DNA of 64,000 nucleotides from positions 64,001-128,000 of the IMG/VR virus record IMGVR_UViG_3300043788_000040, one strand, 5' to 3'. Below are positions 6,576-58,602 of this stretch, piece by piece. This stretch comes from a virus. The notes beneath the pieces were generated by a model. The model was not told the DNA's origin and made no database searches. It saw only the letters and a list, made by a program, of their open reading frames with translations. A program made the position numbers and the translations under genes. How positions within the stretch are numbered: the stretch's first letter is position 1; the number at the start of each line of letters is the position of its first letter.

Positions 6576-6662
6576 GCCGGGATGGCGGAATTGGCAGACG
6601 CGGCGGCCTCAAACACCGTTGCCTTAAAAAGCGTGCAGGTTCGACTCCTGTTCCCGGCACCA
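6576..6662 (+). tRNA. tRNA-Leu(CAA)
   Basis: GCCGGGA/TCCCGGC, loop CTCAAAC, ACCA. Confidence 0.93.
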
Positions 6663-6697
6663 ATTCCAGTATTATCGTGGTAGGGAGCTACACTACC

Positions 6698-7039: not shown

Positions 7040-7072
7040 CCTGTAAGCTTCTCCGTTTCAACCACTTACTGG

Positions 7073-7102
7073 TGGACAAATCTACACCCCTGCCTGTATA
7101 CT
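7073..7102 (+). promoter_or_regulatory. Putative early promoter TGGACA-N18-TATACT
   Basis: Same motif at 60950-60979 (+) and 49432-49461 (-, TGGACG). Confidence 0.6.
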
Positions 7103-8122: not shown

Positions 8123-8470
8123 ATGAGAATCCTGATTGCTGAGGATCATGAAGTTCTACGTGATCTACTCGCCAATTTATTGACAGCCAAGGGGCACACC
8201 GTCGTCGCCACGAAAGACGGCGAGGAAGCGCTTCGCACCTTCTACAAAGACGACGGCGGGTTTGACTACGTGATCACCGATTACCAGATGCCACGCAAGA
8301 ACGGCGTCGTGCTCATCATGGACATTCGCCGCATGAATCCTGCCCAAAAGTGCATCCTTGTCTCCGGCGATCCACCACAGATGACGGACATCATCCGCAA
8401 AGAAGCTGGCGAGTTTCCGATCCTGACGAAGCCCTACGGCACCGCCGATTTGTTAGAACTGCTCAAGTAA
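8123..8470 (+). CDS. Stand-alone response regulator receiver (CheY-like)
   Basis: ILIAED, ITDYQMP..NG, LVSG, LTKPY motifs. Confidence 0.92.
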   Translation: MRILIAEDHEVLRDLLANLLTAKGHTVVATKDGEEALRTFYKDDGGFDYVITDYQMPRKNGVVLIMDIRRMNPAQKCILVSGDPPQMTDIIRKEAGEFPILTKPYGTADLLELLK

Positions 8471-8518
8471 CGACGGCCGTTGTTTTGAAATTGCCCATTC
8501 CCAAGGTATTATTGGGTT

Positions 8519-9529
8519 ATGGCGAACCCCTTTGGTAACAGATCAAACGACGAAGCAGAAACCGCAAACACACCTGCACCAACCAGTGCGCAAGGCAACG
8601 CGGCAGCCAAGGCAGACGACGACGATCAGGCGTACTACCACTGGTCAAAGCGTAACGGCCTCTACCGCCCCGTGGGACACACGCAGGACACCGTCCCGGC
8701 TGGCATCTACGAAATAGACAACGACAACTCCGGTTGGTACCTATCCAAGGTGAAGTTCCCCTCCGACGCCCTGCTCCGCCTGCCGGGCATGCCCATTGAC
8801 TATATCCTCGGGCAGATTGACACCTTCTGGCAGCGTGAGAAACTGTTCACTCAGACCGGGCTTCTCCACAAGCGTGGCATTCTGATGTATGGACCCGCTG
8901 GCTGCGGCAAGACCTCAATCATCCGCCTGCTTTGCGACGACATCGTCAACAAGCGTGACGGCATCGTCATCATGGTCACGAACTGCCGTCTTGCAGAGAC
9001 CGCCCTCGGCGGCATCCGCCAGATTGAGCCACGTCGTCCGATCCTCACTATCATTGAGGACATTGAGACATTCATGGGACAGAGCGATGAGTCATCATCG
9101 GCTCGTGCGCTCTTGGCTCTCCTTGACGGCGAGACGCAGATCAACCACGTCGTCCACTTGGCGACGACCAACAAGCCTGACTTACTTGAAGACCGCGTTG
9201 TGAAGCGCCCAGGACGTTTTGATCTCGTCATCGGGCTGAACCACCCCGTCGCCGACGCACGCAAGGCGTACTTGTTCAACCTCCTGCAAGAGCACGTGTC
9301 CGCAGACGAGCTTCAGTCCATGGTGGACGAGACGGAAGGTCTCGGGCTTGCTCACCTACGTGAACTGGTTGCGGCGTCGTACTGCTTGGGGCTGGATCGC
9401 AAAGAGACACTTGCCCGCTTGAAATCCAACTTCAAGAAGAAGCTCAAGAACACCGAGAGCAAGGGCAACATCATGGGGTTCACGACGAACTTCGTTGACG
9501 AGGATGGAAAGGTCAAGCTCAACGACTAG
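8519..9529 (+). CDS. AAA+ ATPase
   Basis: RGILMYGPAGCGKT, IIEDIE, ATTN, KRPGRFD. Confidence 0.92.
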   Translation: MANPFGNRSNDEAETANTPAPTSAQGNAAAKADDDDQAYYHWSKRNGLYRPVGHTQDTVPAGIYEIDNDNSGWYLSKVKFPSDALLRLPGMPIDYILGQIDTFWQREKLFTQTGLLHKRGILMYGPAGCGKTSIIRLLCDDIVNKRDGIVIMVTNCRLAETALGGIRQIEPRRPILTIIEDIETFMGQSDESSSARALLALLDGETQINHVVHLATTNKPDLLEDRVVKRPGRFDLVIGLNHPVADARKAYLFNLLQEHVSADELQSMVDETEGLGLAHLRELVAASYCLGLDRKETLARLKSNFKKKLKNTESKGNIMGFTTNFVDEDGKVKLND

Positions 9530-9531
9530 GC

Positions 9532-10008
9532 ATGAACAGGATCATCCAGTTCGCCTACGAGTACGACTTCCTTTCCAACTTTTACACCACCACTGTTCAC
9601 CTTGACGGCTTGGCATACGCCTCGGTGGAGCACGCATACCAAGCCGCCAAGACTCTCAACCCCGAGAAGCGTCTGATCTTCACGCTGGATAATCCGAGCC
9701 TGACAGCCCGGCAAGCCAAGAAGATAGGACAAAATCTCAAACTGCGCGATGACTGGGATAAGGTCAAAGTTCCGATCATGCGTGAGCTTTTGTTCCAGAA
9801 GTTCTCCGGTGACCTCAAGCAGAAGCTCCTCGCCACAGGGGATGCTTATCTGGAAGAGGGCAACTGGTGGCACGACATCTTCTGGGGCGTATGTCATCAC
9901 AAGATGGAAGGCAAGACCTGCCGTGAGCCGGAGCATAGGCCTTTCGGAGGGAACCACCTCGGGTACCTGCTAATGGACGTCCGTGCCTACCATCCTCCTG
10001 TGCTATAA
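9532..10008 (+). CDS. NADAR (YbiA-like) family protein
   Basis: FLSNFY, SVEHAYQAAK, LLATG..LEEGN..D.FWG, GGNHLGYLLMDVR. Confidence 0.92.
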   Translation: MNRIIQFAYEYDFLSNFYTTTVHLDGLAYASVEHAYQAAKTLNPEKRLIFTLDNPSLTARQAKKIGQNLKLRDDWDKVKVPIMRELLFQKFSGDLKQKLLATGDAYLEEGNWWHDIFWGVCHHKMEGKTCREPEHRPFGGNHLGYLLMDVRAYHPPVL

Positions 10009-10026
10009 TCGGCACTGGAGGAACAC

Positions 10027-10395
10027 ATGGCAACTCTCAAGGAACAAGTAGCCGAACGGATCGCGACCCTCGGACCGACGGTGCAGGATGGCGTTGTTTC
10101 GGTTTTGGTAGAACAGGTCAAAGAGAAGCGCATCAAGGCTGTTCTCACGGCGCTGAGTCTTTTGGAAGACACACAGAAGGAACTCAAGAAAATCAAGCCC
10201 GAGCAGACGTTTGACGGCGACGGTAAGGTTCTCACCGAGTTCTACACCAAGGCGACCACTGAAGCACGCAAAAAGCTGACCGAGAAGATCACCAAGATTG
10301 AGACCGCGCTGACGCAAGCCCTCAGCGAAACCCCGAACTTCGAGAAGCTGTTCGCGGTCACGCAGGGCAAGGAAACCTCCAGCAGCGACGAGTAA
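10027..10395 (+). CDS. Hypothetical coiled-coil protein
   Basis: GGAGG RBS, 122 aa. Confidence 0.7.
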   Translation: MATLKEQVAERIATLGPTVQDGVVSVLVEQVKEKRIKAVLTALSLLEDTQKELKKIKPEQTFDGDGKVLTEFYTKATTEARKKLTEKITKIETALTQALSETPNFEKLFAVTQGKETSSSDE

Positions 10396-10794
10396 CCTTG
10401 ACAACGTCCGAGCATCTCTGGGCACTGGCAACGGAGAGGGCGAACGCCCCCGAACACATGCGGGAATTGTTCGCTCTCGCCATTGACCGCGCCACGTGGG
10501 AAGCAGCCGACAAAATCAATCACGACGTCGGACGTTCCATTTCTTACGACTATCCGCTTTCATCTCGTTGGCAGGGATCGGAACGGCGTTTTTACGCTGA
10601 GGCGCTTCATCGCTACGTTCAACTCAAGCTGGCGCTCCACCGGGTGAAGACAAGGCTTTCGTGGCACACGCCGTCAGAAGACGAAGAGGTCTTCCTTCAC
10701 CACAAAGAGACAGCGCTCCGTGCCCAGATTAAAGCTGCACGAGCCGCCAAGGGCGAAGCGATCTGGGGCGATTTGACGCCCGAAAAATAACCTC

Positions 10795-10823
10795 TTGACA
10801 GTTTCCCGATTTCTTGGTACTAT
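10795..10823 (+). promoter_or_regulatory. sigma70-type promoter of Pro/Met/Phe tRNA array
   Basis: TTGACA-N17-TACTAT. Confidence 0.85.
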
Positions 10824-10876
10824 ATGTGAGTACAAACTAAGCGGCGAAGTAAGCCGCTCATAGGTGCTGCCTTCAA

Positions 10877-10951
10877 ATGAACACGATGCGACCATTTTCG
10901 GGATTCCGACCGTACACGCCACCCAGCGTGCGCGGGGTCGCAAGTCTCTGA
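10877..10951 (+). CDS. Attenuator leader peptide MNTMRPFSGFRPYTPPSVRGVASL
   Basis: 24 codons with Pro CCA/CCG/CCA/CCC, Phe TTT/TTC, Met x2; lies between promoter and terminator. Confidence 0.7.
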   Translation: MNTMRPFSGFRPYTPPSVRGVASL

Positions 10952-10961
10952 CTTAGGAGAC

Positions 10962-10993
10962 AGCCCCCGCGCTGCAAGGCGTCGGGGCTTTGT
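10962..10993 (+). terminator. Attenuator terminator hairpin
   Basis: AGCCCC-C-GCGCT-GCAA-GGCGT-C-GGGGCT plus short T tract; CCCCGCGC can instead pair with GCGCGGGG (10930-10937). Confidence 0.6.
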
Positions 10994-11051
10994 GGGTTAT
11001 GAAATTCCCAACAAAGAAGCAATTTTAGCCGCCCCGACTGTAGTTCTGTAT

Positions 11052-11139
11052 CGGGACGTAGCCTCGTAAATGGAAGCGATCTCGCTTTGGAAGCGAGAGC
11101 TTAACCGCCTTGGGAGTTCGAGTCTCCCCGTCCCGACCA
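11052..11139 (+). tRNA. tRNA-Pro(TGG), atypical (long variable region, A37, irregular D arm)
   Basis: CGGGACG/CGTCCCG-ACCA, CTCGC-TTTGGAA-GCGAG. Confidence 0.8.
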
Positions 11140-11168
11140 AGTTTCGTTCGTGAAGTCAACGAACATGT

Positions 11169-11245
11169 CAGGGCGTAGCGCAGTCTGGTAGCGCACTCGT
11201 TTCGGATACGAGGGGTCGCTGGTTCGAATCCAGTCGCCCTGACCA
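11169..11245 (+). tRNA. tRNA-Pro(CGG) (A37)
   Basis: CAGGGCG/CGCCCTG, CTCGT-TTCGGAT-ACGAG, ACCA. Confidence 0.93.
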
Positions 11246-11434
11246 AGTTTGAGAGGCCCGGTGGACGTACCCATCGGCGTAAGTGGGTGGTTACATCCAG
11301 CCTCGTTGAGTGTGAGGTGGAGCGACATACGGGAAGGCGGCTGGCGATCAGCCCCCGGAGTCGTGGTACCGCAAGGTCCATAGTGCTGCCTGCCTAACCG
11401 CTCGCCGGATGGCAGCACGAGTCGCCCATAATTT

Positions 11435-11511
11435 CGGGACGTAGCGAAGCCTGGTATCGCGCACCCTTGGGGTGGGTGAGGCCCCGAGTTCGAATCTCGG
11501 CGTCCCGACCA
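11435..11511 (+). tRNA. tRNA-Pro(GGG)
   Basis: CACCC-TTGGGGT-GGGTG, ACCA. Confidence 0.93.
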
Positions 11512-11639
11512 AATTTTAGTAGTCAAAGGAAGCAATGATGAACAAACAACGCGGCTGGTACACAAGGATTTCAATGTAAGGCACCCTCACGTCCGTTTCG
11601 GTCGGAGGGATACTATCCCTCTGGGAAAGGAGACGGACG

Positions 11640-11825
11640 ATGAAGGTCGTGAAGGTGAAGTTTAACGCCAAGATGTTTTTCGTGAAGTTTGTGTTTTTCG
11701 TTGTTATCGCTGTGGTTGTGATCGCGATCTTCAAGAAGATCGGCGAGTTGGTTACCGCAGCGAAGTTGGTTGAGATGGCAGGCGAGGCTGTAAGCGAGGC
11801 TTTGTCTGAGGCAATCGACGTTTAA
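11640..11825 (+). CDS. Small membrane peptide (61 aa) with sequestered RBS
   Basis: AGGAG RBS; hydrophobic FVFFVVIAVVVIAIF segment. Confidence 0.65.
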   Translation: MKVVKVKFNAKMFFVKFVFFVVIAVVVIAIFKKIGELVTAAKLVEMAGEAVSEALSEAIDV

Positions 11826-11829
11826 GTTT

Positions 11830-11932
11830 TGCAGGTTCGGATTGAGGGGCAGGGTTAATGGCCCTGCTCCGTCCCGTGTGGGTGACCCATTATCACCCTT
11901 AAGCGCCAGTGAAAAGCTGGAGCCTGCGACCA
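11830..11932 (+). ncRNA. CCA-ended cloverleaf-like RNA without T-loop consensus
   Basis: TGCAGGTTC/GAGCCTGCG-ACCA with three internal hairpins. Confidence 0.5.
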
Positions 11933-11936
11933 GTTT

Positions 11937-12008
11937 TGCGGGGAAGTGAATTGGATCACGTCAGCCTCATAAGCTGAAAACCCGGTTCGAATCCGGCGAC
12001 CGCAACCA
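11937..12008 (+). tRNA. Degenerate tRNA-Met(CAT)
   Basis: TCAGC-CTCATAA-GCTGA, TTCGAAT loop, CCGCA-ACCA; acceptor stem mismatches. Confidence 0.65.
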
Positions 12009-12080
12009 ATTTGGGCAGGTAGTGCCTCCGAACGGCGGGCACGTAAAGCGGAATCAACCGCCATCCTAGCCCGACATTTT

Positions 12081-12686
12081 ATGGAACAGTACCCAGAGAT
12101 ACCCGGCGCGAAGAAAGCTCCCCTCGGGGAGAAGTGCATCGCGTTCTACAAGTACGACGGCTCCAACCTCCGGTGGGAATGGAGTCCGAAGCGTGGCTGG
12201 TACAAGTTCGGCACACGGACGGAATTGTTTGCCCCGAACCATCCGCTGTGGGGGCAGGCGGTGCCGCTCTTCAACGCAGTCGGCGACGACATCGTCAAGC
12301 GGGTGCTGGCGAGTGACAAGAAGTTCCGCAACATTGAGCGGATCATAGCGTTCACGGAATTCTTCGGGCCTTCAAGCTTTGCCGGGACGCACGACGAGAA
12401 GGAACAGAAGGAACTCAGGCTCTTTGACGTTTGGCTGTACAAGAAAGGCAGGATGTCCCCCCGGTGGTTTGTGGAGACGTTCGGAGACGCACCCTATGCG
12501 GCTCAGGTGATCTACGAAGGCAACCTGAACATGGAGTTCATCCGCGACGTGCGGACTGGGAAGTATCCGGTGTGGGAAGGAGTCGTGGCGAAGGGCGACG
12601 ACTTCATGGTCAAGATCAAGACCGAGGCGTACATGCTGAAGCTGAAAGAAGTGTACGGTCTGAACTGGGAAAAGTTTTCGGAGTAA
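12081..12686 (+). CDS. ATP-dependent RNA ligase-like nucleotidyltransferase (Rnl2-like adenylation domain)
   Basis: Motifs KYDGSN (I), EFFG (III), LFDV (IIIa), EGVV (IV), KIK (V). Confidence 0.8.
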   Translation: MEQYPEIPGAKKAPLGEKCIAFYKYDGSNLRWEWSPKRGWYKFGTRTELFAPNHPLWGQAVPLFNAVGDDIVKRVLASDKKFRNIERIIAFTEFFGPSSFAGTHDEKEQKELRLFDVWLYKKGRMSPRWFVETFGDAPYAAQVIYEGNLNMEFIRDVRTGKYPVWEGVVAKGDDFMVKIKTEAYMLKLKEVYGLNWEKFSE

Positions 12687-12687
12687 A

Positions 12688-12764
12688 CGGGACGTAGCGT
12701 AGCCTGGTATCGCGCATGCTTCGGGAGCATGAGACCGTGGGTTCGAATCCCACCGTCCCGACCA
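12688..12764 (+). tRNA. tRNA-Pro(CGG), canonical G37
   Basis: CATGC-TTCGGGA-GCATG, ACCA. Confidence 0.95.
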
Positions 12765-12769
12765 AGCTT

Positions 12770-12958
12770 ATGAGCAACAAGGTCAATCATAGACGGAGTG
12801 GGAAAGTTCGGGCGCAGCGCAGCAGGCGTTCGTCTAATCTGGTCAACGACCCGCGCCGGGACATCGGCAGGAATCACAACGACCAACTTTGCCACTCGGA
12901 GTGGAAGAAGATCAAGACGAGAATTGAGCGTCGCAGGTTAAAGGGAGAAGGAAGATGA
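12770..12958 (+). CDS. Small basic protein
   Basis: Arg/Lys-rich 62 aa; TGA overlaps the ATG of the release factor. Confidence 0.5.
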   Translation: MSNKVNHRRSGKVRAQRSRRSSNLVNDPRRDIGRNHNDQLCHSEWKKIKTRIERRRLKGEGR

Positions 12959-13615
12959 TTCTGGAGATAAGAGCAGCGGAAGGAGGCGAGGACGCGAAGC
13001 TCCTCGTTGAAGACCAAGTCACCATCTATGCCCGTGTGGCAACACGGAGGGGTCTTTAGTTTTGAGATTGTGGAGAAGCGACCGGGTCTCGTCGTATTGA
13101 GGATCACGGGCGCTGGGGCGGAAAGCATACTCGCCAACGAATCGGGTGGTCACCGCTGGCAAAGGGTACCGCCGACCGAGAGGCGAGGCAGGGTGCAGAC
13201 GAGCACGATCACCGTCGCAACGTTCGCCGAGGTGGCGACGGAAGAGTTCAAGGTGAACCCCACTGACTTAGAATGGGACACCATGCGAAGCGGGGGCAAG
13301 GGCGGGCAGAACGTGAACAAGGTTGAGTCCTGCGTTCGTGTCACGCACAAGCCGACCGGGCTGGCAGTACGATGTGAGTCCGAGCGGTCGCAGTCACGCA
13401 ACAGGGCGACGGCGCTTGCTACCCTGACTGCCCGGCTGGCAGCAGCGCACCGGGAGCGGGAGCAGGGCGCACAGTCCGCCGACCGGAAGGCGCAGATCGG
13501 CACGGGACAGCGTGGGGACAAGCGTAGGACAATCCGTGAGAAGGACGGGGTCGTGACAGACCACATCCTAAACCGGAAATGGCGATACGCGGACTATGTA
13601 CGTGGGCTGTGGTAA
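12955..13615 (+). CDS. RF1-type peptide chain release factor lacking domain 1, expressed via +1 frameshift at CTT-TAG (13054-13059)
   Basis: Frame 0 MILEIRAAEGGEDAKLL...RRGL*; +1 frame HRWQRVPPTERRGRVQTS and SGGKGGQNVNK; GGAGG 3 nt before CTT. Confidence 0.85.
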
Positions 13616-13618
13616 GAT

Positions 13619-13696
13619 GGCGGTGTAGCTCAGTTGGCTAAGAGCGCTGGTCTCATAAACCAGAGGTCGCTGGTTCGATCCCAGCCACCGCTACCA
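13619..13696 (+). tRNA. tRNA-Met(CAT), elongator type (Ile2 not excluded)
   Basis: GGCGGTG/CACCGCT, CTGGT-CTCATAA-ACCAG, ACCA. Confidence 0.9.
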
Positions 13697-13783
13697 AATT
13701 TTGCAGTACAAGGAGACAACGATGGCTAACCTTAGCAAGACCACTCATGCCGCGTAAGGCGTGGGCGGTCAAAGGAGAACCAA

Positions 13784-14299
13784 ATGTTGTCAGAAATCAA
13801 AAAGGCGGTCTCGCTGTACTTTGAGCCGCTCAAGAAGCTGTTGCAGTTCCGCGTAAAGCGCTGGCATACGGCTATGCGCGGCTGGGACGAGAAGGACATC
13901 CGGGTCATCATCTGTCTTGAAGACTTGATCTGGTACTGGATGGTTTTGGAATGGCTGTTCTGGGACAATGGCACGTACATCTGCCACTGGCTCCATTACG
14001 TCCCGCTTCCAAAATTTATCTGCAACTGGGAGCGTCACTGGGACAAGGACGACCCGGAGTACTTCGCCAAGTTCGGTGATTGGTTCGGCGATGACTTCGG
14101 ATGCCTGTGGCACGTATGGGTCTGTGACCCGTTGTGCCAGTGGGTGTGGAAGCACAAGGATTTCCACAAGGCGTGGCCTCAGTGGGAATTGACGCTGGAA
14201 GAAGCTCGCAAGACGTTTGCCCATGATCCGGCCATTTATGAGTGGGTTGAAAAAGAGCTTGAACAGCACAAGAAGTGGGATGCAGAAAAGGCTGAATAG
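13784..14299 (+). CDS. Hypothetical Trp-rich protein
   Basis: AAGGAG RBS, 171 aa. Confidence 0.65.
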   Translation: MLSEIKKAVSLYFEPLKKLLQFRVKRWHTAMRGWDEKDIRVIICLEDLIWYWMVLEWLFWDNGTYICHWLHYVPLPKFICNWERHWDKDDPEYFAKFGDWFGDDFGCLWHVWVCDPLCQWVWKHKDFHKAWPQWELTLEEARKTFAHDPAIYEWVEKELEQHKKWDAEKAE

Positions 14300-14315
14300 C
14301 GGTATCATATACAGA

Positions 14316-14457
14316 GTGGGAACCCCTCACTAACCTGACGAGGGGAGTTACCTGAAGACGCGGGATGGCCCAAAAGCGCTAGTTACCCGGCAGTCTAGGC
14401 TCTTAATCGCGTAACGGCTGAATAGCCGGAGCCGATGGTAACGGGGTTCTCACGCCA
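14316..14457 (+). ncRNA. CCA-ended structured RNA
   Basis: 11-bp GTGGGAACCCC/GGGGTTCTCAC stem followed by GCCA. Confidence 0.55.
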
Positions 14458-14512
14458 AGTTTTCAGTCCCAGTCCTGTCTGACTGGGTGGTTGCGGGGGC
14501 AAAAATTTCTGT

Positions 14513-14589
14513 CGCGGGATGGAGCAGCCCGGAAGCTCGCTTGGCTCATAACCAAGAGGTCGGTGGTTCAAATCCACCTCCCGCTACCA
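14513..14589 (+). tRNA. Initiator tRNA-fMet(CAT)
   Basis: CGCGGGA start with C1/U72 mismatch, GAGCAGCCCGGAAGCTC D arm, CTCATAA, TTCAAAT, ACCA. Confidence 0.9.
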
Positions 14590-15011
14590 GTTCAACGCCC
14601 GTAGGCTACGAGCCGAGAAGCAGAAGGGCTAGCAGAGTCATACGACCTTATAGGACGGGAAAGCTCTGCAACAGATGTGGCACGGGAGAACCGATGCGGG
14701 GAAGTCGCCTGTAAGTTTCCGTGCCGTCGTTTTCGGTTCCGTGTTCGTTTAAGGCGCAAGCCGGGTTCGTCACGGATTAAAGTGGTGGTCCAACGGAGAC
14801 GCCCCACGCCGAAGTGAGTTAACGCTCTAATACGGGAGCCAATCAATAACTCCCGTGGGGGCAGGTAAGACGCATTCGCTGAGTAATCTCCGGTTATCCG
14901 GTTGGTGCAGCGGTGAAATCGCGAATCATAGCGTCTTCTTAAACCGCCAGCCATGAGGGTCCCTGACGTCGGGTGGTGCAGTACTTCATGGAGCAATTTG
15001 GCGGTACGAGT

Positions 15012-15153
15012 TTCGCAGCGGTGTATTGTACGGTTACTTCATGCAACCAGTAGGTCGCGGGTTCGAATCCCGTCATCCCAACGCTTTACGGGGTGTAGCT
15101 CAGTGGTAGAGCGACAGGTAAGAAAAACGCCGTGCATCTTTGTTCCCTGCGGA
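15012..15153 (+). ncRNA. YrlA-like Y RNA (circularly permuted tRNA-like domain)
   Basis: GCAG-C-GG/CC-CTGC bulged terminal helix; T arm, closed acceptor stem and D arm GCTCAGTGGTAGAGC in permuted order; motif shared with RNAs next to the TROVE gene. Confidence 0.75.
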
Positions 15154-15525
15154 TTAACTTTTCCTCGTTTAGCAAAACGAGGTGGCGCAGCGGAGAAGCT
15201 TTAGCGACTCCGTCAGCCGTTCTCGGACGTAAACCGAGTGGTGGAGGCGGGCACACTGTGCTCGCCCCTCAATGTCAGTTGAAGTACCGACGAGGCACGA
15301 AATGTGTGAACCGTTGACTCGGGAAAAAGACTGGCACCAAATTTGAAGATGTTGTCCCAGTCAAGCTGTCGGACTAAACTCTGGACCCGGAGTAATGGGC
15401 TTGAAAGAAGCCATGCCCTAATAAGGAAGGCTGACAGCAAAAGATTACAATGAAGCTCACGTCCCAACTCGACACGTTTACCACGCCGCTTAAGGCGGCG
15501 CAGTAAACCTATCTGTGTACTGTAC

Positions 15526-15601
15526 CCGGACGTAGCTGATGTGGACTTAGCGCCACCCTGAAAAAGTGGAGATGGGAGTTCGATTCTCCCCGTCCGGACC
15601 A
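15526..15601 (+). tRNA. tRNA with Phe anticodon (GAA) and Pro-like acceptor stem
   Basis: CCGGACG/CGTCCGG-ACCA, loop CTGAAAA. Confidence 0.8.
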
Positions 15602-15603
15602 AC

Positions 15604-15681
15604 GGGGAGCGAGCTAGTCCGGTGATTTAGCGTCCGCCTGAAGAGCGGAAGAATTCGGTTCGACTCCGAGGCTCCCCGCCA
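15604..15681 (+). tRNA. tRNA-Phe(GAA), atypical (G8, G37, G73)
   Basis: GGGGAGC/GCTCCCC-GCCA, TCCGC-CTGAAGA-GCGGA. Confidence 0.8.
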
Positions 15682-30242: not shown

Positions 30243-31286
30243 TTGTCCCTCATGGGGACTGCTGCCCTTATGCTGGTTAACAAGAAAGACCTGCTCCTAC
30301 CTCTCAAAGCTCTTGAAGCCTTTGACTACAAGGGTGCGCCTTACGTCGGCGTCCAACTCGTGGACGGGCACAAGCCGATGTTCCTCCGCTCCAACAACGA
30401 CGGCATCATCCGATCCAAAGAGTACGGTGTGTTCCCCACGACCTACGTCTCCCTCGGTCACCTGAAGAACGTCCTCAAGAACTGCCCCGAGGACAGCATT
30501 GAACTCAGCGTCAACGAACGTGGGATCATGCGCATGTACGGTACGAGCGAGGTCGGCTCAAACACCGAGACCAATGTCCACACGGTGAGCGAGAAGCAGG
30601 CGGGCACCAAGATTCACGACATCGGGGTCAACATGGTGTCGCTTGACACCCAGACATTCGTTGGGTTTAACATTGACAAGTTCACGTTGGTGTCTGAGCC
30701 TGTGCTCGCACACGGTAAGCTCATGCTTGCGACCAACAAGGGTGCAGTCGTGATGTGGAAGAACGAACTTTTCAGTAGCCAACCCGTGAACCTCAGCCCG
30801 AGGGAATCTTTTCTCCGTATGGTCTGCGGACAGGAGGTAAGCGAACTCTCGCTCACCAAGAACGGCTACTGGGGCGCTGGGATCGGCGATCTCGTGACCT
30901 ACACGAAGGGGCACATTCTCGGACGCCAGCTTTTTGACAGCTACAACCAGCCGGGCACTGGGGCAGCACAGATTCCTGCCGAGCGTTTACTGACCTGCCT
31001 GCGTGCGGCCGTGGGGCTGCTGGATGAACAGGAAGTAATTGAGGTTGACCCCAAGCTGGGCGTCATCGCCAAGGGCACGTTCGGCGAGAACCGAAACTCC
31101 CTCGGAGAGACTGGGGATTGGAAACGCTTCAGCCTGCAAGCCAAGACTGCCAAGGTCGTCATTGACGCCCTATCGCAAACAGCCGGAGATTATGCTACAC
31201 TGGAACTCACGTCAACCGGATCGGGACCGTCCTCCACGATGAGGCTAGTTCGTGGCGAGGTGGCGGTGAATTTCAGGAGCTTCTGA
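30243..31286 (+). CDS. Hypothetical protein, possible sliding clamp
   Basis: 347 aa, about beta-clamp size, alternating helix/strand pattern; clamp loader present in window; no diagnostic motif. Confidence 0.35.
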   Translation: MSLMGTAALMLVNKKDLLLPLKALEAFDYKGAPYVGVQLVDGHKPMFLRSNNDGIIRSKEYGVFPTTYVSLGHLKNVLKNCPEDSIELSVNERGIMRMYGTSEVGSNTETNVHTVSEKQAGTKIHDIGVNMVSLDTQTFVGFNIDKFTLVSEPVLAHGKLMLATNKGAVVMWKNELFSSQPVNLSPRESFLRMVCGQEVSELSLTKNGYWGAGIGDLVTYTKGHILGRQLFDSYNQPGTGAAQIPAERLLTCLRAAVGLLDEQEVIEVDPKLGVIAKGTFGENRNSLGETGDWKRFSLQAKTAKVVIDALSQTAGDYATLELTSTGSGPSSTMRLVRGEVAVNFRSF

Positions 31287-31470
31287 TGGCAAAATTCAAG
31301 TACCACACCAACAAAGGATTCACAGCAGCCACCTACAACGACATTGATCCAGAAAACGTGGACACTGTCGGCGAAGGCAACAACGCAGTCGTCGTACTCT
31401 CGGATGACGACGGCGTGAAAGCCGTCATCCACCTCGCTCCTGGCGACTACATTGAAAGGATCAACGACTA

Positions 31471-31797
31471 ATGCAAGTCACAGACGAAACGTTCCAGCAG
31501 GAAGTCCTCGCTTCAGAAACCCCGGTGCTTGTGGATTTCTACGCCGATTGGTGCGGTCCATGCCGTGCGGCCGCTCCTGTCATTGAAGCCCTCGCCGAGG
31601 AGTACGCGGGCAAGATCAAGGTGGTCAAGGTGGACGTGGACACCAGCAGCAAGAACGCTGTGGAACACGGCGTGCGTGGCATCCCCAACTTCATTGTTTT
31701 CAAGGGCGGGCAGCGTGTGGCGCAGTTCATCGGTTGGGGTGAGAATCGTGCCGAAGAGATTCGTGCAGCATTGGAAACTGCTCTGGCATCTAATTAG
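31471..31797 (+). CDS. trxA: Thioredoxin
   Basis: VLVDFYADWCGPC, VRGIP. Confidence 0.97.
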   Translation: MQVTDETFQQEVLASETPVLVDFYADWCGPCRAAAPVIEALAEEYAGKIKVVKVDVDTSSKNAVEHGVRGIPNFIVFKGGQRVAQFIGWGENRAEEIRAALETALASN

Positions 31798-31866
31798 CAG
31801 AAGATTTTTGTAAAAATTACGCCGTCCGGGCGGTTATATACAGTAGAGCCAAAAGGAGGCTCTCGC

Positions 31867-32571
31867 ATGTTGACATTTCTCGCAAGTTTACTTGCCCTCG
31901 GCACCATCGGGTTCTGGCTTTTGGTGCTCGTTGACTTCATCGTGATCACCGCCTTGGTTGAGAACGAGGAAGGCGTTTGGGCCACCGTCGTAGCCATCGG
32001 TTCTATCATCGGTCTCAACTATCTCTGGAAGCTCCCCATCGTTGCCACCATCAAAGCCAACCCCGGCCACACCGCGATCCTGATCGCCAGCTATTTTGCC
32101 ATCGGCATCGCTTGGTCATTCGCGAAGTGGGTTCTCTTCCTGCACAAGCAGAATTTCAAGTACCGGGACTTCAAGACGCAGTTCTTGTCCAAGAACAACG
32201 CCAAGGAACTGACGCCGGAGCTTGCCGCCTCGCTGATGGAAGAACTGGAAAGCCACAACAGGTACGAGTCTTACGTTGACAGGCGGATCAGTGCGACCCC
32301 GCCCCAATTCCTTGACCACAAAGGCAAGCTGACCCGCTGGGCGACCTACTGGCCTTTCTCCATCATCGGCACGCTTCTCAACGATGTCGTCCGCAAGTCG
32401 TGGACTTACATCATCAATATGCTCCAAGGCGCTTACCAGCGTGTCTCCAACTACATCTTCCGTGGTGCTCTTGCCGACAAGGCATTGGCAGAAAACTACA
32501 AAGCCAAACAAGCAGCCGCAGGTGCGGATGGCGGATCAAGTGACGCCCCGTCTCGCAGACGTGGCTACTAA
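31867..32571 (+). CDS. Membrane protein
   Basis: AGGAGG RBS, several hydrophobic segments. Confidence 0.75.
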   Translation: MLTFLASLLALGTIGFWLLVLVDFIVITALVENEEGVWATVVAIGSIIGLNYLWKLPIVATIKANPGHTAILIASYFAIGIAWSFAKWVLFLHKQNFKYRDFKTQFLSKNNAKELTPELAASLMEELESHNRYESYVDRRISATPPQFLDHKGKLTRWATYWPFSIIGTLLNDVVRKSWTYIINMLQGAYQRVSNYIFRGALADKALAENYKAKQAAAGADGGSSDAPSRRRGY

Positions 32572-33197
32572 GACCCTGATCACAGCCCCGATGTCCGCAA
32601 GCCGGGGCTGTGATCTCTTCCTCACCGCTGCGAAGAAATTGCTGCGGGAGCTTGTGGTGGGTCGCCCTCCGATGGAGATGTATCCGGGCGAGATAGACGG
32701 GACTCTGGAGTACCAGAGACGTCTTGACCGCTTGCGCACGCCGAATCCGTTTGAGGGTGAGGCGACTGAGGCTCGCTCGTGCTTTCTGCTCCGGTACTAT
32801 TCTGGCAAGCGTGAATGCTTCTTTGCAGACACCGACACGCAGGAGCTTACGCCCTTGTCCTTCTTCGCTTCCTACAGGGGACAGTCCGAATACTACCCTG
32901 ACCTTGAAATCGGTACCCCGAAGGGGATTCCGCAGTATTAGCCTCATGGAGGATCATCTCTATGAGCGTTGACGCAGTAGGCAATTTGGACACTCCGGTA
33001 GAAGAGCCGAAGAAAAAGCGGGTCAAGATTGTGTCCGCGAATACTGGGGTGCGCAAGCATCTCCTAACCACGGCATACAAGCAGGACGTCGCCGAGAAGC
33101 TGGACAAGCTCCACGCGGCGGGACACACCATCGTTTCCATCACCTCATCTTCCGATATTCGGGGTTTTGAGGTCGTTAGCTACAAAGAGGAGTAACC

Positions 33198-33845
33198 GTG
33201 GATCAGGCACTCGTCTCCCGGCTGGGAAAAGTGCATGCCACCGTCTCATCTATCGCTCAGCGGCTTGAGTATGAGACTGCGACTATCACCCGGCTGACAT
33301 CCAGAATCAAACAGCTTGAAGAAGAGAAGGCTCACTTGGTGAAAGCCGTGGGCACGATAGACCGCTGCGTCCAGATTGTGTCGGCAAACGGCATCGGCAA
33401 GATTGAAGGCATTGTGTCAGATGGTCTTCACCGGGTCTTCGGCAATGACCAGCTTGGTCTTTTCATTGAGAAGAAAGAGACAGCGAGGGGTAACACCTAC
33501 CGCCTGCTCATCCGCAAGGGCGAAACTGTGGGCAACCCCATGGACTCGTTCGGTGGGGGCGTCCAGAACGTAGTCGCCTTCCTGCTCCGTGTCATCCTGA
33601 TCAAACGCTTCAAGCTGGCTCCATTCATCGCCTTGGACGAGCAGTTCTCCAACGTGTCTTCCGAGTACCAACCTAAGATTTCTGAGATGCTGAAGGTGCT
33701 GTCCAAGATGGGCTTCACGATCTTCGCCATATCGCACCAGCCCACAATCACCTCCGCTGCTGATACAATATACGAGGTGGTGGTTGATGAAGGCTTCCCA
33801 CCCGTTCTACGTAAGCAGGTCTTGCCTCAATCTGAGGTGTTGTGA
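33198..33845 (+). CDS. SbcC/Rad50-like ABC ATPase, C-terminal half
   Basis: Coiled coil, SFGGG signature, IALDE Walker B, ISH H-loop; no Walker A. Confidence 0.85.
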   Translation: MDQALVSRLGKVHATVSSIAQRLEYETATITRLTSRIKQLEEEKAHLVKAVGTIDRCVQIVSANGIGKIEGIVSDGLHRVFGNDQLGLFIEKKETARGNTYRLLIRKGETVGNPMDSFGGGVQNVVAFLLRVILIKRFKLAPFIALDEQFSNVSSEYQPKISEMLKVLSKMGFTIFAISHQPTITSAADTIYEVVVDEGFPPVLRKQVLPQSEVL

Positions 33846-54769: not shown

Positions 54770-56767
54770 TTAGTATTCGTACCCCACGACGCACACAGTC
54801 GCGTTGCCAGTGTTCACCTGCGAAAGTGTGCTGATGCCCACTTGCTGACCAGCCGCTATTTCTAATCCATCTGGAAAAACTTGCTCGGCGTTGCCTACGT
54901 CAGCCGTGCCTGAGGTCGTAGATGGAGAGGCGAATAGGGTGCAGTAAATCGGCGAGGTGACGAGGACAGCCGCAGCAGCGCGGATGCGTGCTTTGACTGC
55001 GCCGATGCCAGTATTGACTTGCGAAGCCAGCGTCATGCTCTGCATGCGGAACGTTTTACCAGCCGTCACGGTGTACGAAGTTCCCGTTGTCGTTGCACCG
55101 TTCTTGGTGATGCTCATCGTCTGCAAAGCTTCCGCCGCTGGGGCTGTAACGTTGTCGATATACAACACCACTACGGTGCGACCAGAGTCCTTGAGTTCTT
55201 GCACCTTGGTCGGTGGTACTCCGTTGGATTGTGCCGCGAAACCAACGGTGACCGTGCCCGTCCCTGTGATAGCTGGGCTGAGTCGGACGCGGAAGTATTG
55301 CCAGCCTCCGATGTTGAACTTGAAGGAGATGTAGGTGCTGGCTTGGAACGTGTAGGACTGGATGTCATTGCCGTCAGCGGCATAGTTGACACCTGAGGCT
55401 GCGACCCAGTTGGCGTTATCGTTGCTGACTTCGAAGTTGGCAGCACCACCCGTGATCGTCGTCGTCTGGTTGAAAGTGACTAGGATAGTGTTGTACGAAA
55501 AGTTCGCACTGAGCAGGGTGACGGCTGTATTGTTCGCTGTGGCAGATGTCCAAGATGCAGCGGCGGTGTTGCTAGTGCCGCTGTTCGCTTCCTTCAAAGC
55601 ACCAATGGCGTCAACCTGCAAGGGCGATACGTTACCCGTGGTGATTGTAGTGGGGGTCGTGTTGAACTGTCCGGCGATCAGAAGCTCGTTGGCAGGAGAG
55701 GCTGCGTTTTGACCCGCAGCATCCATCGCCGCGCCCGTATTTCCGACAATGCCAACCTTCTGCACACCAGCCGCAGCCGTTACGACAGCCACACCTGCCA
55801 CTGCTTGCAGATCGTGATTGAGTGCGCCGTGTAAATCGGTAACGGGCAGGACTTGATCGCCTGTCGTGTAAGTGACAGTCGTGTACGCGGTCTCAGCAAT
55901 CGCAGGCAGTACGCCAAGATTTTGAGCGTTCGGAGCCGCGTTATTGTTGGTCAAGTTGCCAACGACTGTGAACGGTGCGGCTGGGTTTGTCACATTGACG
56001 TTCAGCGACGTGCCTGTCGCGGTGATCCCGGTGACGCCAGCGAACAGAGAAGAGTTGACGGCTGGAACTGCAACGGCTGCTGGAGCCGATCCGAAGTTTA
56101 CAATCGCCGTGGCACCGAGTGCTGTACCTGCGACAGCTTGCAAATCTTGGTTGAGAGCACCGTGCAGGTCCGTGACGGGAAGCACCATGTCGCCCGTGGT
56201 GTAGGTGACGGTCGTGTACGCAGTCTCAGCAATAGCACCCAGTACGCCAACTAGCGTTGCGGTAGGAGCCGCGTTGTTGTTCGTTAGGTTTCCGTCAACG
56301 ACCCATGGGGTTGTGCTCTGCGTGACACCCACGGTCCCTGAGATTGCTGTCGTGGAGAGGGAACTGACAAACGAGTCAGCGGAGTATCCGATGGTGACCG
56401 TTCCCGTGCCTGTGATTGCCGAACTAAGAAGAACTTGAAAATACGGAATGGCGGTTAGGTTAAACTGGAAGACCGCGTAGGTGTTCGCTTGAAGCGTGTA
56501 CGTAGCTCCCACCAACGCCAGCGTGGAGGTGTTGAATCCTTGAAGGTTGAAGAAGTTTACGCCGTCGAAGCTGCCCTGAAATGTGACCACGCCGCCTGTG
56601 ATCGTGGTGGTCTGTGACAGGGAAATGTTCAGGGTGTTGTAGGAGATGTCATTGCTGACCAGCGAGGCGACTGTGTTGAGAGCAGTGCTGCTGTTCCACG
56701 CGACAAACGAAGGGTTCTGCGAACCTACGCTGATACTTGCCGTGATGGAATACTGTGACTCAGGCAT
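54770..56767 (-). CDS. Fibre-like repeat protein
   Basis: Repeats GNLTNNNAAP...AETAYTTVTYTTGD.VLPVTDLHGALN.DLQAVAG. Confidence 0.75.
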   Translation of the reverse strand: MPESQYSITASISVGSQNPSFVAWNSSTALNTVASLVSNDISYNTLNISLSQTTTITGGVVTFQGSFDGVNFFNLQGFNTSTLALVGATYTLQANTYAVFQFNLTAIPYFQVLLSSAITGTGTVTIGYSADSFVSSLSTTAISGTVGVTQSTTPWVVDGNLTNNNAAPTATLVGVLGAIAETAYTTVTYTTGDMVLPVTDLHGALNQDLQAVAGTALGATAIVNFGSAPAAVAVPAVNSSLFAGVTGITATGTSLNVNVTNPAAPFTVVGNLTNNNAAPNAQNLGVLPAIAETAYTTVTYTTGDQVLPVTDLHGALNHDLQAVAGVAVVTAAAGVQKVGIVGNTGAAMDAAGQNAASPANELLIAGQFNTTPTTITTGNVSPLQVDAIGALKEANSGTSNTAAASWTSATANNTAVTLLSANFSYNTILVTFNQTTTITGGAANFEVSNDNANWVAASGVNYAADGNDIQSYTFQASTYISFKFNIGGWQYFRVRLSPAITGTGTVTVGFAAQSNGVPPTKVQELKDSGRTVVVLYIDNVTAPAAEALQTMSITKNGATTTGTSYTVTAGKTFRMQSMTLASQVNTGIGAVKARIRAAAAVLVTSPIYCTLFASPSTTSGTADVGNAEQVFPDGLEIAAGQQVGISTLSQVNTGNATVCVVGYEY

Positions 56768-56799
56768 TGGATAATCCCCTACAAATCCCTTAGAAAGTC

Positions 56800-56830
56800 A
56801 AAAGAAAAGGGGCACCTTGCGGTGCCCCTC
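56800..56830 (-). terminator. Intrinsic terminator
   Basis: AGGGGCACC-GCAA-GGTGCCCCT followed by TTTCTTTT on the minus strand. Confidence 0.85.
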
Positions 56831-56905
56831 GTCCGAATGCCTCAACTTCAAGGCACGCCCTGATAAAGATCAAAATTGATGACAGGCAGGATGGGTACGA
56901 TCAAG

Positions 56906-56990
56906 CGGAAGGCACCGGAGTTGAACCGGAGAGGTTTCCCTCCCATCGCTTTATCAGGGCGTGCTCAATGACCTATTGAGATTACCTTCC
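56906..56990 (-). tRNA. 8/4-fold tRNA-like gene (allo-tRNA/tRNA-Sec-like), anticodon GAT, G73, CCA not encoded
   Basis: GGAAGGTA/TGCCTTCC 8-bp acceptor, 6-bp D stem, CTGATAA loop, GGAGG-GAAA-CCTCT variable arm, CCGG-TTCAACT-CCGG. Confidence 0.75.
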
Positions 56991-57045
56991 GAGAGCAGCC
57001 CTGCCTGTCAAATGTCTAATACCCTCTCCCCAACAATTCAGCCGA

Positions 57046-58602
57046 TTAGATTGCAGCGGCTTCTTCTGACCAGCGGATGGAACCAAAAGCCTTGGAAGTA
57101 CCAGTGCCGAACTTCTGAGCGGCAAGGGTGTAGGTGTCTCCAGGTGCCCCGGCAGCCATGTACTGCAACAGCATGTCGGTGTGCGCGGGAGCCGAAGCAA
57201 GCATAGATGACCAAACCACGGTTCCGGTGCCGATAGTGACAGCAGTCGCCGTGACGTCACGCTTGATGTGCGAACCAGTCGGAATACCAGTCGCCGTGAA
57301 CGCTGCGCCCGTGAGGGTTTGGGGGTTCTTGATGAGCACGACCTTGACCTGCGAGCCGTCTCCGTACGCCTGAACCTCGCGGATAAGGAATGACTCCGTG
57401 GTTGAGTTGGACTGAATCGAGATCAGCGGTACCAGCGTGGCGTTCGGCAGTGTGATGAGGGTCGTGAAGCCGGAGTCGTCAGCGAAGTAGTTGATTGACT
57501 GGGCATACTGCTCATCCGCAGGAATCGTGACCAGCGAACCGCCCTGCGACACGCGCAGAAGTTCTTGGTCGCCAGCGGTGTAAGCCGGGAGGGTGACGGT
57601 CGGGAACGTGCCGGAGTCCGTGACTGCGATCAACGCGCCGATGTTGTTCGTAGTCGGAGCCGCGTTGTTGTTCGTCAGGTTGCCAGCGATTACCCAAGGC
57701 GTGGTGCCCTGCGTGACTGCGACCGTGCCGCCCGTGACATCCACGTTCAGGCTGGAGCCTGTCGCGGTGATGCCCGTGGTTCCGGCGAAGATTGAAACGT
57801 TCGCGCCGATTACGTTTGCAGCAGCGGGTGCCGTACCGAAGGCGGTAACAGCAGTCGCACCCAGTTGGACGCCAGCCGAAGCCTGCATGTCGTTGTTGAC
57901 TGCGCCATGGAGGTCGGTGACTGCCAGTACTTGGTTGCCCGTCGTGTAGGTGACGGTGTTGTAAGCGGTCTCAGCGATGAAGCCCAGCACGCCCATGTTG
58001 TCGGCAATCGGGGCTGCCGTGTTGTTAGACAGGTTGCCAGCAACCGTGACGGTAGTCGTGCTACCAGTCAGGTTGACGTTCAGCGCACCGCCCGTGTTCG
58101 TCAGAGCCGTGGTGCCTGAGAAGATTGAGGAGTTGACAGCCGGAACGTTTACAGCGGCCGGAGCCGAACCGAAGGCGACTACTGCGGTCGCGCCAAGCTG
58201 GACGCCAGCAACAGCCTGCAAGTCGTCATTGACTGCTCCATGCAAGTCGGTGGTCGCCAGAACTTGGAAGCCGTTCGTGTAGGTGTTGGTCGTGTACGCG
58301 GTTGAAGCAAGGAAGCCAAGCGTGCCGAGGTTGTCTGCAACGGGCGCTGCGTTGTTGTTCGTCAACGTGCCCATGACGTTCGTGGTGCCCGCGAACGTGG
58401 CGTTGACGTTTAGAAAGCCGTTTGGAGTGGACGAGAGCGGCTGGAAGTTGCCGTTGCTGTCCATGCTGCCGACTAGGATGCCCGATGTCGGGGACGCTGT
58501 GCCATTAGCAGCAAATAAAGGCGATTCGGTGTTGTTGTCGTACAACCCGGAGACTGTGACTGTCGTGTACTGGTCAGTTCCGGGGAATAGTGTCAATGGC
58601 AT
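57046..58602 (-). CDS. Fibre-like repeat protein
   Basis: Same NNNAAP/TDLHGA repeats as 54770-56767. Confidence 0.75.
   Translation of the reverse strand: MPLTLFPGTDQYTTVTVSGLYDNNTESPLFAANGTASPTSGILVGSMDSNGNFQPLSSTPNGFLNVNATFAGTTNVMGTLTNNNAAPVADNLGTLGFLASTAYTTNTYTNGFQVLATTDLHGAVNDDLQAVAGVQLGATAVVAFGSAPAAVNVPAVNSSIFSGTTALTNTGGALNVNLTGSTTTVTVAGNLSNNTAAPIADNMGVLGFIAETAYNTVTYTTGNQVLAVTDLHGAVNNDMQASAGVQLGATAVTAFGTAPAAANVIGANVSIFAGTTGITATGSSLNVDVTGGTVAVTQGTTPWVIAGNLTNNNAAPTTNNIGALIAVTDSGTFPTVTLPAYTAGDQELLRVSQGGSLVTIPADEQYAQSINYFADDSGFTTLITLPNATLVPLISIQSNSTTESFLIREVQAYGDGSQVKVVLIKNPQTLTGAAFTATGIPTGSHIKRDVTATAVTIGTGTVVWSSMLASAPAHTDMLLQYMAAGAPGDTYTLAAQKFGTGTSKAFGSIRWSEEAAAI

Follow-up and report, generated by a model that had tools for sequence, protein, structure and literature searches.

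An allo-tRNA-like gene and a complement of its own anticodon arm form a conserved unit in a jumbo-phage fragment

Introduction

How can a cell or a phage afford a gene for a transfer RNA (tRNA) that breaks the genetic code? The allo-tRNAs of the (8/4) type have left this question open, and it is raised by a locus that we analysed in a stretch of 64,000 nucleotides (nt), hereafter the window. The window comprises bases 64001-128000 of a 170,563-base-pair (bp) virus record of IMG/VR (IMGVR_UViG_3300043788_000040), whose CheckV completeness of 54% indicates that it is a fragment of a jumbo phage. On the minus strand of the window, an isolated tRNA-like gene of the 8/4 type, with the isoleucine anticodon GAU, is followed by a perfect complement of its own anticodon arm and by a terminator.

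The (8/4) allo-tRNAs were described from soil bacteria and phages (Mukai et al., Nucleic Acids Res 2017, PMC5389517; review PMC7609411), and the class was discovered through its similarity to the Rfam covariance model of tRNA-Sec (PMC5389517). Other allo-tRNAs insert serine at leucine codons in E. coli; some are lethal or toxic and some inactive, and some lie near toxin-antitoxin genes (PMC5389517, PMC7609411). A possible role as regulatory non-coding RNA was also raised in this literature (PMC5389517, PMC7609411). In the consensus structure of the class, the anticodon stem is longer than in canonical tRNAs (PMC5389517).

In this work, we suggest that the locus consists of an allo-tRNA and an antisense RNA that masks it, acting as a device for conditional mistranslation or as an RNA-only toxin and antidote, a proposal that we rate as somewhat better than an even chance. 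Sequence comparison gives good support to the structure, to its conservation and to an antisense pairing that co-evolves with the tRNA. As for function, the masking of a tRNA that is charged with serine and decodes isoleucine codons is the most parsimonious interpretation, and one that rests on inference; we infer serine charging, masking in vivo, toxicity and biological purpose.

Results

A tRNA-like gene followed by a complement of its own anticodon arm

The element comprises the following features, given in the order of transcription of the minus strand.

57000..57010, minus strand: leader arm A (UGACAGGCAGG), a perfect 11-bp inverted repeat with 56880-56890
56906..56990, minus strand: 8/4 allo-tRNA-like gene of 85 nt (ARAGORN at 80% threshold; Rfam tRNA-Sec, 32 bits; family model R1, 78.8 bits)
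56949..56964, minus strand: segment B, the target of the antisense, tRNA positions 25-40
56880..56890, minus strand: trailer arm A' (CCUGCCUGUCA), partner of the leader arm
56853..56868, minus strand: segment B' (CUUUAUCAGGGCGUGC), antisense to the anticodon arm and perfectly complementary to 56949-56964 over 16 nt
56835..56858, minus strand: small hairpin between the antisense seed and the terminator, from the fold of the trailer RNA
56797..56830, minus strand: intrinsic terminator, with a 10-pair G+C-rich stem (56830-56807), a GCAA loop and then UUCUUUU

A first-pass annotation of the window, made from the letters alone, had proposed a cloverleaf here, and every part of it is present. The cloverleaf measures 85 nt and has an acceptor stem of 8 bp (GGAAGGUA/UGCCUUCC), a D stem of 6 bp (CUCAAU/AUUGAG) whose 5-nt loop contains GG, a GAT anticodon (56955-56953), a long variable arm (5 bp with a GAAA loop), a 4-bp T stem with the loop UUCAACU, and G73 at 56906, followed by CUU, with no CCA encoded. 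The anticodon loop, CUGAUAA, has the canonical 7 nt with U33 and A37, and its stem in the window has just 3 Watson-Crick pairs, with A.A and C.A mismatches on either side. The features of a canonical tRNA-Ile(GAU), that is, a 7/5 branch, a short variable loop, A73, a place in a tRNA array and an encoded CCA, are all missing.

ARAGORN missed the element at default settings; at the 80% threshold it reported a tRNA-Ile(gat) of 86 nt, whose acceptor and T stems have 8 and 4 bp and which carries a long variable arm and G73. Such a relaxed search is weak evidence by itself, with 4 dubious calls in 10 kb of L002. The Rfam tRNA-Sec model matched 56907-56990 with 32 bits (E 2e-4 in a 601-base scan and 1.3e-5 in the whole 170-kb record). 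The same model gave 41 bits for L021, the viral homolog introduced below, and 30-36 bits for the ordinary class II tRNAs of the phage, the gathering score being 47. The match of the covariance model is better evidence than the relaxed ARAGORN call; being below gathering and like the scores of the phage's own class II tRNAs, it signals a tRNA with a long variable arm and not a tRNA-Sec. A permuted transfer-messenger RNA (tmRNA) was also considered and rejected, because the tmRNA search of ARAGORN made no call in the window or in the whole record.

Segment B takes in the final D-stem base, the anticodon stem's 5' strand and the complete anticodon loop, plus 2 nt, and its complement B' begins 37 nt past the 3' end of the tRNA. 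A listing of inverted repeats over 56780-57050 found three perfect repeats. The 11-bp repeat bracketing the tRNA and the 16-nt antisense, both noted in the first pass, are among them, and so is the repeat in the terminator stem (56808-56816 / 56821-56829). No inverted repeat longer than 12 nt arose in 400 shuffles of the same region, and four of the shuffles gave one of 11 nt or more, so that the antisense is longer than any repeat found by shuffling. Moreover, none of 300 shuffles matched the energy of the B:B' duplex (-30.4 kcal/mol), and the 170-kb record holds no further 10-mer match to B or B'. The strong terminator noted after the antisense is there as well, as a 10-pair stem and a U tract. 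Leader arm A resembles the antisense segment through a common CAGGGC, and its pairing with the anticodon arm is marginal (p = 0.067). A search against Rfam gave no riboswitch or T-box at E <= 10 apart from a 21.7-bit, chance-level match on the terminator.

Homologous units

Nine homologous units were found beyond the window. A pattern made of the anticodon loop, the T loop and a 7-nt core of the complement returned ten viral loci with one true homolog, L021, and a tighter pattern applied to metagenome contigs returned nine loci with eight true homologs (L030-L037). L021 sits in a 96%-complete phage of 44.6 kb (G001), near the terminase gene. The nine share a GGAGGGUR start, the 8/4 cloverleaf, the GAU anticodon, G73 and the lack of an encoded CCA. 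In each of them, a trailer of 42-51 nt is followed by a 13-15-nt complement of the unit's own anticodon arm, a hairpin and an intrinsic terminator, and the order seed, hairpin, terminator is the same in L021, in L034 and in the other L030-L037 copies. As judged by eye in the alignment, the 11-bp leader-trailer helix of the window has no counterpart in the seven metagenomic copies other than L034, and L021 has only a short split helix.

The genes beside the homologs differ. There is a MazG gene downstream of L031, a convergent open reading frame (ORF) of 2797 amino acids (aa) beside L034, and a DUF6496 gene upstream of L021, with the terminase further on. This indicates that the unit is a self-contained RNA locus and not the leader of one given gene. 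It is single-copy both in the 170-kb record and in G001.

Other searches added no member. With distant blastn, 50,697 phage records yielded no match to the element, an exact-pattern scan with the T arm and the acceptor strand had no match, and a pattern anchored on the D arm, with the complement left free, retrieved only L021 among viral contigs and nothing among metagenome contigs. The same D-arm pattern on genome contigs led to L027 and L028, which are unrelated serine tRNAs. Likewise set aside were L017, L019, L022, L023 and L029 (ordinary tRNA-Ile genes or unrelated sequence near TTATCAG), L024 and L026 (a different long tRNA), and L018 and L025 (tandem repeats of a tRNA 3' half). In the last two (L018, 1-196; L025, 799-1024), each repeat unit joins a tRNA 3' half (GGGTTCGACTCCCACTAGGGG) to a hairpin holding CCCTGATAAG / CTTATCTGGGG, a different, repeated arrangement around the same anticodon-loop-like motif. 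L028 carries at 1124-1189 an 8/4-type tRNA-Ser(UGA) with no antisense element, located beside three ordinary tRNA-Ser genes in an array of 15 tRNAs on a contig binned as Pseudobdellovibrionaceae. Applied to further phages, the family model R1 matched one ordinary tRNA-Ser, in G002 (316 kb), and had no match in the remaining four.

Covariation of the two pairings

The central pairs of the B:B' helix were fixed by the search pattern (8 in eight homologs, 7 in L021), and therefore only the flanking pairs count as independent evidence. Positions 28, 29, 30, 39 and 40 are paired in 10 of 10 sequences, through two to four pair types each, and in all ten the helix stops after position 40. In the alignment (A2), the helix is 97.8% paired and 6 of its 14 pairs have changed on both sides, a value reached by none of 500 shuffles; sliding the register lowers the pairing to 25-45%. 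Compensatory changes between anticodon arm and antisense, which the first pass had named as a check on homologs, were thus found, and the complementary neighbour has been conserved jointly with the tRNA, with B:B' covariation in five lineages.

The cloverleaf is conserved in the same way. Its pairing over the family amounts to 92.3%, and 18 of its 29 pairs show changes of both partners. Its acceptor stem (98.8% paired) and T stem (97.5%) both include double changes, and the stem of the variable arm is 100% paired over four unrelated sequences. The anticodon stem is 76% paired, with position 31-39 unpaired in nine of the ten sequences (a conserved C31.A39 mismatch). G1-C72, G2-C71, A3-U70 and G73 are invariant (G73 in 10 of 10), and the elbow elements, that is, the GG of the D loop and the UUCRAYU of the T loop, are conserved. 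A change between the closely related L031 and L030 illustrates how the two structures are tied, the U28 of L031 being C28 in L030, matched there by A42 to G in the cloverleaf and by A to G in the antisense.

Both structures keep their pairing through double changes and are therefore under selection. The 5' strand of the anticodon stem thus has two pairing partners, which exclude each other and are both conserved. In addition, the G.U pairs of the antisense helix would be A.C on the opposite strand, which favours a constraint at the RNA level on the strand that carries the tRNA.

Serine-type body and specificity of the complement

Control scans of viral contigs were defined by acceptor type and T loop only, with anticodon and complement left free. 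They returned 237 tRNA-like sequences (114 with GGAGGGTR and 123 with GGAAGGTR), 199 of which ARAGORN called tRNA-Ser. An acceptor pattern that retrieves almost only tRNA-Ser gives empirical support for a serine-type body. In fact, the serine-type identity of the tRNA is supported indirectly, through this retrieval and the invariance of G1-C72, G2-C71, A3-U70 and G73.

The longest downstream complements of the control sequences had the same distribution as those of a reversed-sequence control, the sole clear exception being L021, with 13 nt. By duplex energy, 1 of 87 tRNA-Ser genes reached p <= 0.01, which is the chance expectation. On these sequence counts, the antisense lock is a trait of the GAU family and not of all odd tRNAs. 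Two members of the control set merit mention for other reasons. L091 (minus strand; oriented 9494-9578) holds an allo-like tRNA with a GCA anticodon and, directly behind its 3' end, an 8-nt complement of the anticodon stem (GCAGACCG) that is not significant by duplex energy. L096 (oriented 12247-12339) holds an allo-tRNA(UAU) with a consensus promoter behind it and without a complement.

Predicted folds

In the minimum free energy (MFE) fold of the window precursor, leader and trailer arms form a helix of 12 pairs closing the tRNA. With the leader arm included, cloverleaf and leader-trailer helix amount to -87.9 kcal/mol and a fold with the antisense helix forced to -84.8 kcal/mol; the mutual exclusion of the antisense with the 11-bp helix is a prediction within nested folds, the algorithm being blind to pseudoknots that hold both helices. 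With the leader arm removed, the antisense helix is the MFE fold. It is also the MFE state in five of seven folded precursors (L034, L030, L031, L032 and L035), by 3 to 21 kcal/mol. In trans, pairing of the mature tRNA with the trailer RNA gains 9-23 kcal/mol in all lineages tested. When the trailer RNA of the window is folded alone, the first 10 nt of B' are predicted to be single-stranded, and an unpaired 5' end is the usual design of an antisense seed.

The first-pass annotation had read the locus as a potentially mistranslating tRNA held inactive in its precursor. The structural half of that reading, an 8/4 allo-type tRNA with an antisense to its own anticodon arm, stands; as for the lock, the two states of the window precursor come out almost level in predicted energy, which is no clear lock.

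Joint or separate transcription of tRNA and antisense

The antisense of L034 is preceded, at a distance of 7 nt, by a promoter close to consensus (TTGACT-17-TATATT, extended by TG), and the other seven of the L030-L037 copies have TGnTAnnnT at the same place, with T1, A2 and T6 conserved and the interior variable. A similar promoter-like motif is also found upstream of the tRNA leader in these copies. This suggests that the antisense of the homologs is a separate small RNA of 65-82 nt. A scan for sigma-70 promoters was negative for L031 by the criteria of the tool. In the window, the hexamer aligned to the homologs' motif is CATCAA, and the simplest view of the copy is that of a 3' untranslated region in the transcript of the upstream gene, in which case the antisense would act in cis or after processing.

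The metagenomic homologs show further pairings. In the seven other than L034, the leader repeats 9 nt of the antisense; p is at most 0.007 in six of them and 0.067 in L030. Moreover, the first 15 nt of their trailers (CACTCGATC; L031 3352-3370, with counterparts in L030-L037) pair with the junction of anticodon stem and variable arm (GATCGAGTG), and in L032 and L037 both sides of this pairing have changed in step (GATTGAGTG / ACTCAATC), at a position that the cloverleaf leaves unpaired. The trailer-junction pairing looks like a second lock, acting in cis only.

The sequencing data consisted of four runs, all as Logan contigs, one of them RNA (X3). In X1, the element is unchanged on a contig of 272 nt. 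In X4, a soil DNA contig about 94% identical to the window, similarity is lost at 56829, the 5' edge of the terminator stem, and this loss covers 9 loose letters only, too little to call an insertion boundary; the tRNA/antisense block may be absent or different in that relative.

Genomic context

The element lies between two ORFs of the same orientation.

57046..58602, minus strand: upstream ORF, 518 aa, repeat-containing, ending 35 nt ahead of leader arm A
54770..56767, minus strand: downstream ORF, 665 aa, starting about 30 nt past the terminator tail

The upstream ORF has no sequence match in Pfam, PHROG or PDB. The downstream ORF, labelled a fibre gene in the first pass, has no PHROG or PDB match and in Pfam only a sub-threshold DUF1999 (19.7 bits, cut-off 25), which leaves that label unconfirmed. 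Both ORFs contain a repeat of about 170 aa (68% identity between them), which recurs many times in the relatives L151 and L152. The relatives that carry homologs of the flanking ORFs (L002-L008, L151-L154) gave no tRNA-like Rfam match.

ARAGORN found 31 ordinary tRNA genes in the record, in two plus-strand arrays (record 30590-33571 and 68467-79681, the latter being 4467-15681 of the window), and none of them is for Ile or Ser. All 31 encode CCA, unlike the isolated minus-strand 8/4 element. Each of the 31 is followed by a similar short spacer, A/G-(A/T)TTT(G), which may be a processing signal, and the genes are clustered by amino acid, with 5 Leu, 4 Pro, 3 Met and 2 Phe in a row. Some are peculiar. 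The second tRNA-Phe(GAA), at 15604-15681 of the window, has G73 in place of the usual A73 and scores 38.8 bits with the 8/4 family model, and the tRNA-Pro(UGG) at 11052-11139 is 88 nt long with an odd extra arm; together with the tRNA-Tyr at 4467-4554, these two are not among the Rfam tRNA matches at the gathering score.

Discussion

How the locus might work

The proposed mechanism has two parts. The first would be an orphan 8/4 allo-tRNA with a serine-type acceptor, G73, a long variable arm and the GAU anticodon in a deliberately weak stem. The second would be a terminator-ended RNA of about 70 nt, whose predicted single-stranded 5' end exactly complements tRNA positions 25-40. The antisense seed would dock on the anticodon loop, whose C-U-G-A may form a YUNR U-turn, and the pairing would then zip through the weak stem into a 16-bp duplex. 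Such a duplex would hide the anticodon and unfold the anticodon arm, leaving the tRNA unable to decode. In this phage, both parts most likely share a transcript with the structural gene upstream of them, with a lock at least in cis, and the 11-bp leader-trailer helix would stabilise the tRNA fold and bring the two states to almost the same predicted energy. In homologs of the bacterial type, the antisense would be a separate small RNA with its own promoter, acting in trans. The likely purpose would be to restrain a tRNA that puts serine at AUC/AUU codons.

Several of our results weigh against this proposal. On the side of the comparative evidence, nine of the ten members were found with patterns demanding the central 7-8 nt of the complement, scans with the complement condition removed gave no further GAU members, and the family comprises about five independent lineages, which limits the statistics. 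The viral tRNAs with other odd anticodons (L096, UAU; L140, UAA; L092, CAA) have no significant complement. As for folding, the full-length precursor of the window places the tRNA fold 3-5 kcal/mol above the locked fold in predicted stability, and in L021 the cloverleaf is preferred over the antisense helix by 8-10 kcal/mol. The sigma-70 scan found no promoter before either the tRNA or the antisense in the window, and the sole metatranscriptome contig (X3, from soil) covers 56600-56771, in the downstream gene and outside the element; it is identical to the window and ends at 56771, four bases before the downstream ATG. Finally, isoleucyl-tRNA synthetase (IleRS) reads the anticodon, and the tRNA might be charged with isoleucine and be harmless.

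Other explanations

This last point leads to an explanation in which the complements do no more than time maturation by RNase P or at the 3' end, the tRNA being an odd but working one, possibly charged by IleRS, with neither mistranslation nor toxicity. Its CUGAUAA loop is identical to the loop of ordinary bacterial tRNA-Ile(GAU), the trailer-junction pairing and the partial antisense copy in the leaders of the L030-L037 copies fit a role at the precursor level, and in the window the antisense has no visible promoter. We consider such an explanation improbable, however, since the body is of the serine and not the isoleucine type in its discriminator (G73), its long variable arm and its GGA/UCC acceptor start, ordinary tRNA genes (including the 87 tRNA-Ser genes examined by duplex energy) are without such a complement, and the promoter-like motifs in L034 and its metagenomic relatives would give a free antisense RNA. 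The tRNA might instead be a non-decoding mimic, either a decoy for an anticodon nuclease or another tRNA-binding enzyme or a handle for RNase P/Z, with the antisense tuning its availability. Allo-tRNA(UAU) species were inactive in translation (Mukai et al., PMC5389517), which counts for a mimic, as do the weak anticodon stem with its conserved C31.A39 mismatch and the CCA that is not encoded here and is encoded by 31 of 31 ordinary phage tRNAs. On the other hand, the conserved elbow, the canonical 7-nt loop with U33 and A37 and an intact, covarying acceptor are what a decoding tRNA needs, so we give the mimic little credence. Moreover, we know of no anticodon nuclease specific for tRNA-Ile(GAU).

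Explanations that dispense with a tRNA function fare worse. The first pass had suggested, as an alternative, control of readthrough into the downstream gene, and the place of the element between two co-oriented ORFs, its strong terminator and two alternative folds within about 3 kcal/mol would suit an attenuator or riboswitch-like leader setting the passage from the upstream gene to a downstream structural gene. Yet the antisense (56868-56853) and the hairpin (56858-56835) are both clear of the terminator stem (56830-56807), so that no anti-terminator is evident; the homologs precede unrelated or convergent genes (MazG in L031, the 2797-aa ORF in L034), and no riboswitch or T-box was found in Rfam, which makes this suggestion very hard to maintain. 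Just as far-fetched, in our view, is a feature of the DNA itself, in which a small mobile cassette would recombine or transpose at the interleaved inverted repeats, or the element would be a decayed tRNA pseudogene. Such a feature would account for the lack of a tRNA-like element in relatives with homologous neighbour genes and for the loss of similarity in X4 exactly at the terminator edge, but the element is single-copy in both phages, no target-site duplication was seen on reading the flanks, and covariation keeps RNA helices, with G.U pairs that would be A.C on the opposite strand. The maintenance of five of five cloverleaf stems is likewise unexpected for a pseudogene. Two special forms were rejected on similar grounds: a miniature inverted-repeat transposable element (MITE) with the 11-bp repeat as its ends, because that repeat encloses only the tRNA and is single-copy, and an invertible segment, because 80 bp is too short and the G.U pairs point to RNA.

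What a masked allo-tRNA would mean

If the masking of the allo-tRNA holds, a dedicated antisense co-evolving with the anticodon arm would answer directly the question of how such a gene is afforded. It would represent a new layer of translational control and possibly a new type of RNA-only toxin-antitoxin system, and synthetic biology could take it as a natural model for suppressor or mistranslating tRNAs that can be switched. A natural tRNA whose regulation relies on base pairing at the anticodon was described in no paper that we found. A bolder and, for now, unlikely version is that the locus is a protein-free toxin-antidote pair, portable in phages and bacteria, made of a serine-charged tRNA for isoleucine codons and an antisense antidote capturing its anticodon loop. 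In that case, translation would be poisoned when the short-lived antidote runs out, as in addiction or abortive infection; alternatively, the phage would degrade host protein quality on cue.

Comparison with known systems

The (8/4) allo-tRNAs are the closest relatives of the tRNA described here, which shares with them the 12-bp branch split into 8 and 4, the long variable arm, the extended D stem and its small loop, the discriminator (G73 here, G73 or U73 in the class) and an anticodon at odds with a serine-type body. Unlike in the published class, with its longer stem, the anticodon stem has 3-4 bp and a conserved C31.A39 mismatch. GAU is not found in the main text of Mukai et al. 2017 (PMC5389517), the anticodon table of its Figure 2 aside. 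The complementary trailer, or antisense partner, is a further difference, as neither PMC5389517 nor PMC7609411 mentions one. Full-text literature searches retrieved no description of an antisense partner for a tRNA or allo-tRNA. The body is thus that of the published class, and it is for its combination with a dedicated masking antisense RNA that no paper was found.

RNA-RNA toxin-antitoxin systems of type VIII, such as SdsR/RyeA and CreT/CreA, neutralise a harmful RNA by pairing with a neighbouring RNA, and in hok a 3' element keeps the full-length transcript inactive until processing. As in type VIII and hok/sok, a neighbouring RNA would pair here with a potentially harmful one. The toxin in those systems is an mRNA or a small RNA, and here it would be a tRNA. 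CreT sequesters a tRNA through its codons and is no tRNA itself. Another partial parallel is 3'ETS-leuZ of E. coli, which Lalaouna and co-workers reportedly described in 2015 as an RNA from a tRNA trailer that sponges other small RNAs. The antisense of the present locus would likewise be a small RNA encoded in the trailer of a tRNA gene and ending at the terminator; unlike B', 3'ETS-leuZ is not complementary to its own tRNA.

Two other systems recall the mode of recognition. T-box RNAs also read a tRNA by anticodon pairing. They do so with 3 anticodon nucleotides and the NCCA end of a folded tRNA, and they control a downstream gene, whereas the duplex of 13-16 bp predicted here must open the anticodon stem, with no Rfam T-box match and no common downstream gene. 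Antisense RNAs recognising YUNR U-turn loops, as in CopA/CopT and Sok/hok, are said to have been described by Franch and co-workers in 1999. The arrangement of the present locus is much like theirs, with a seed predicted to be single-stranded facing a 7-nt U-turn loop and with C-U-G-A of the anticodon loop fitting the YUNR motif; their target loops lie in mRNAs or replication primers, and the one described here lies in a tRNA.

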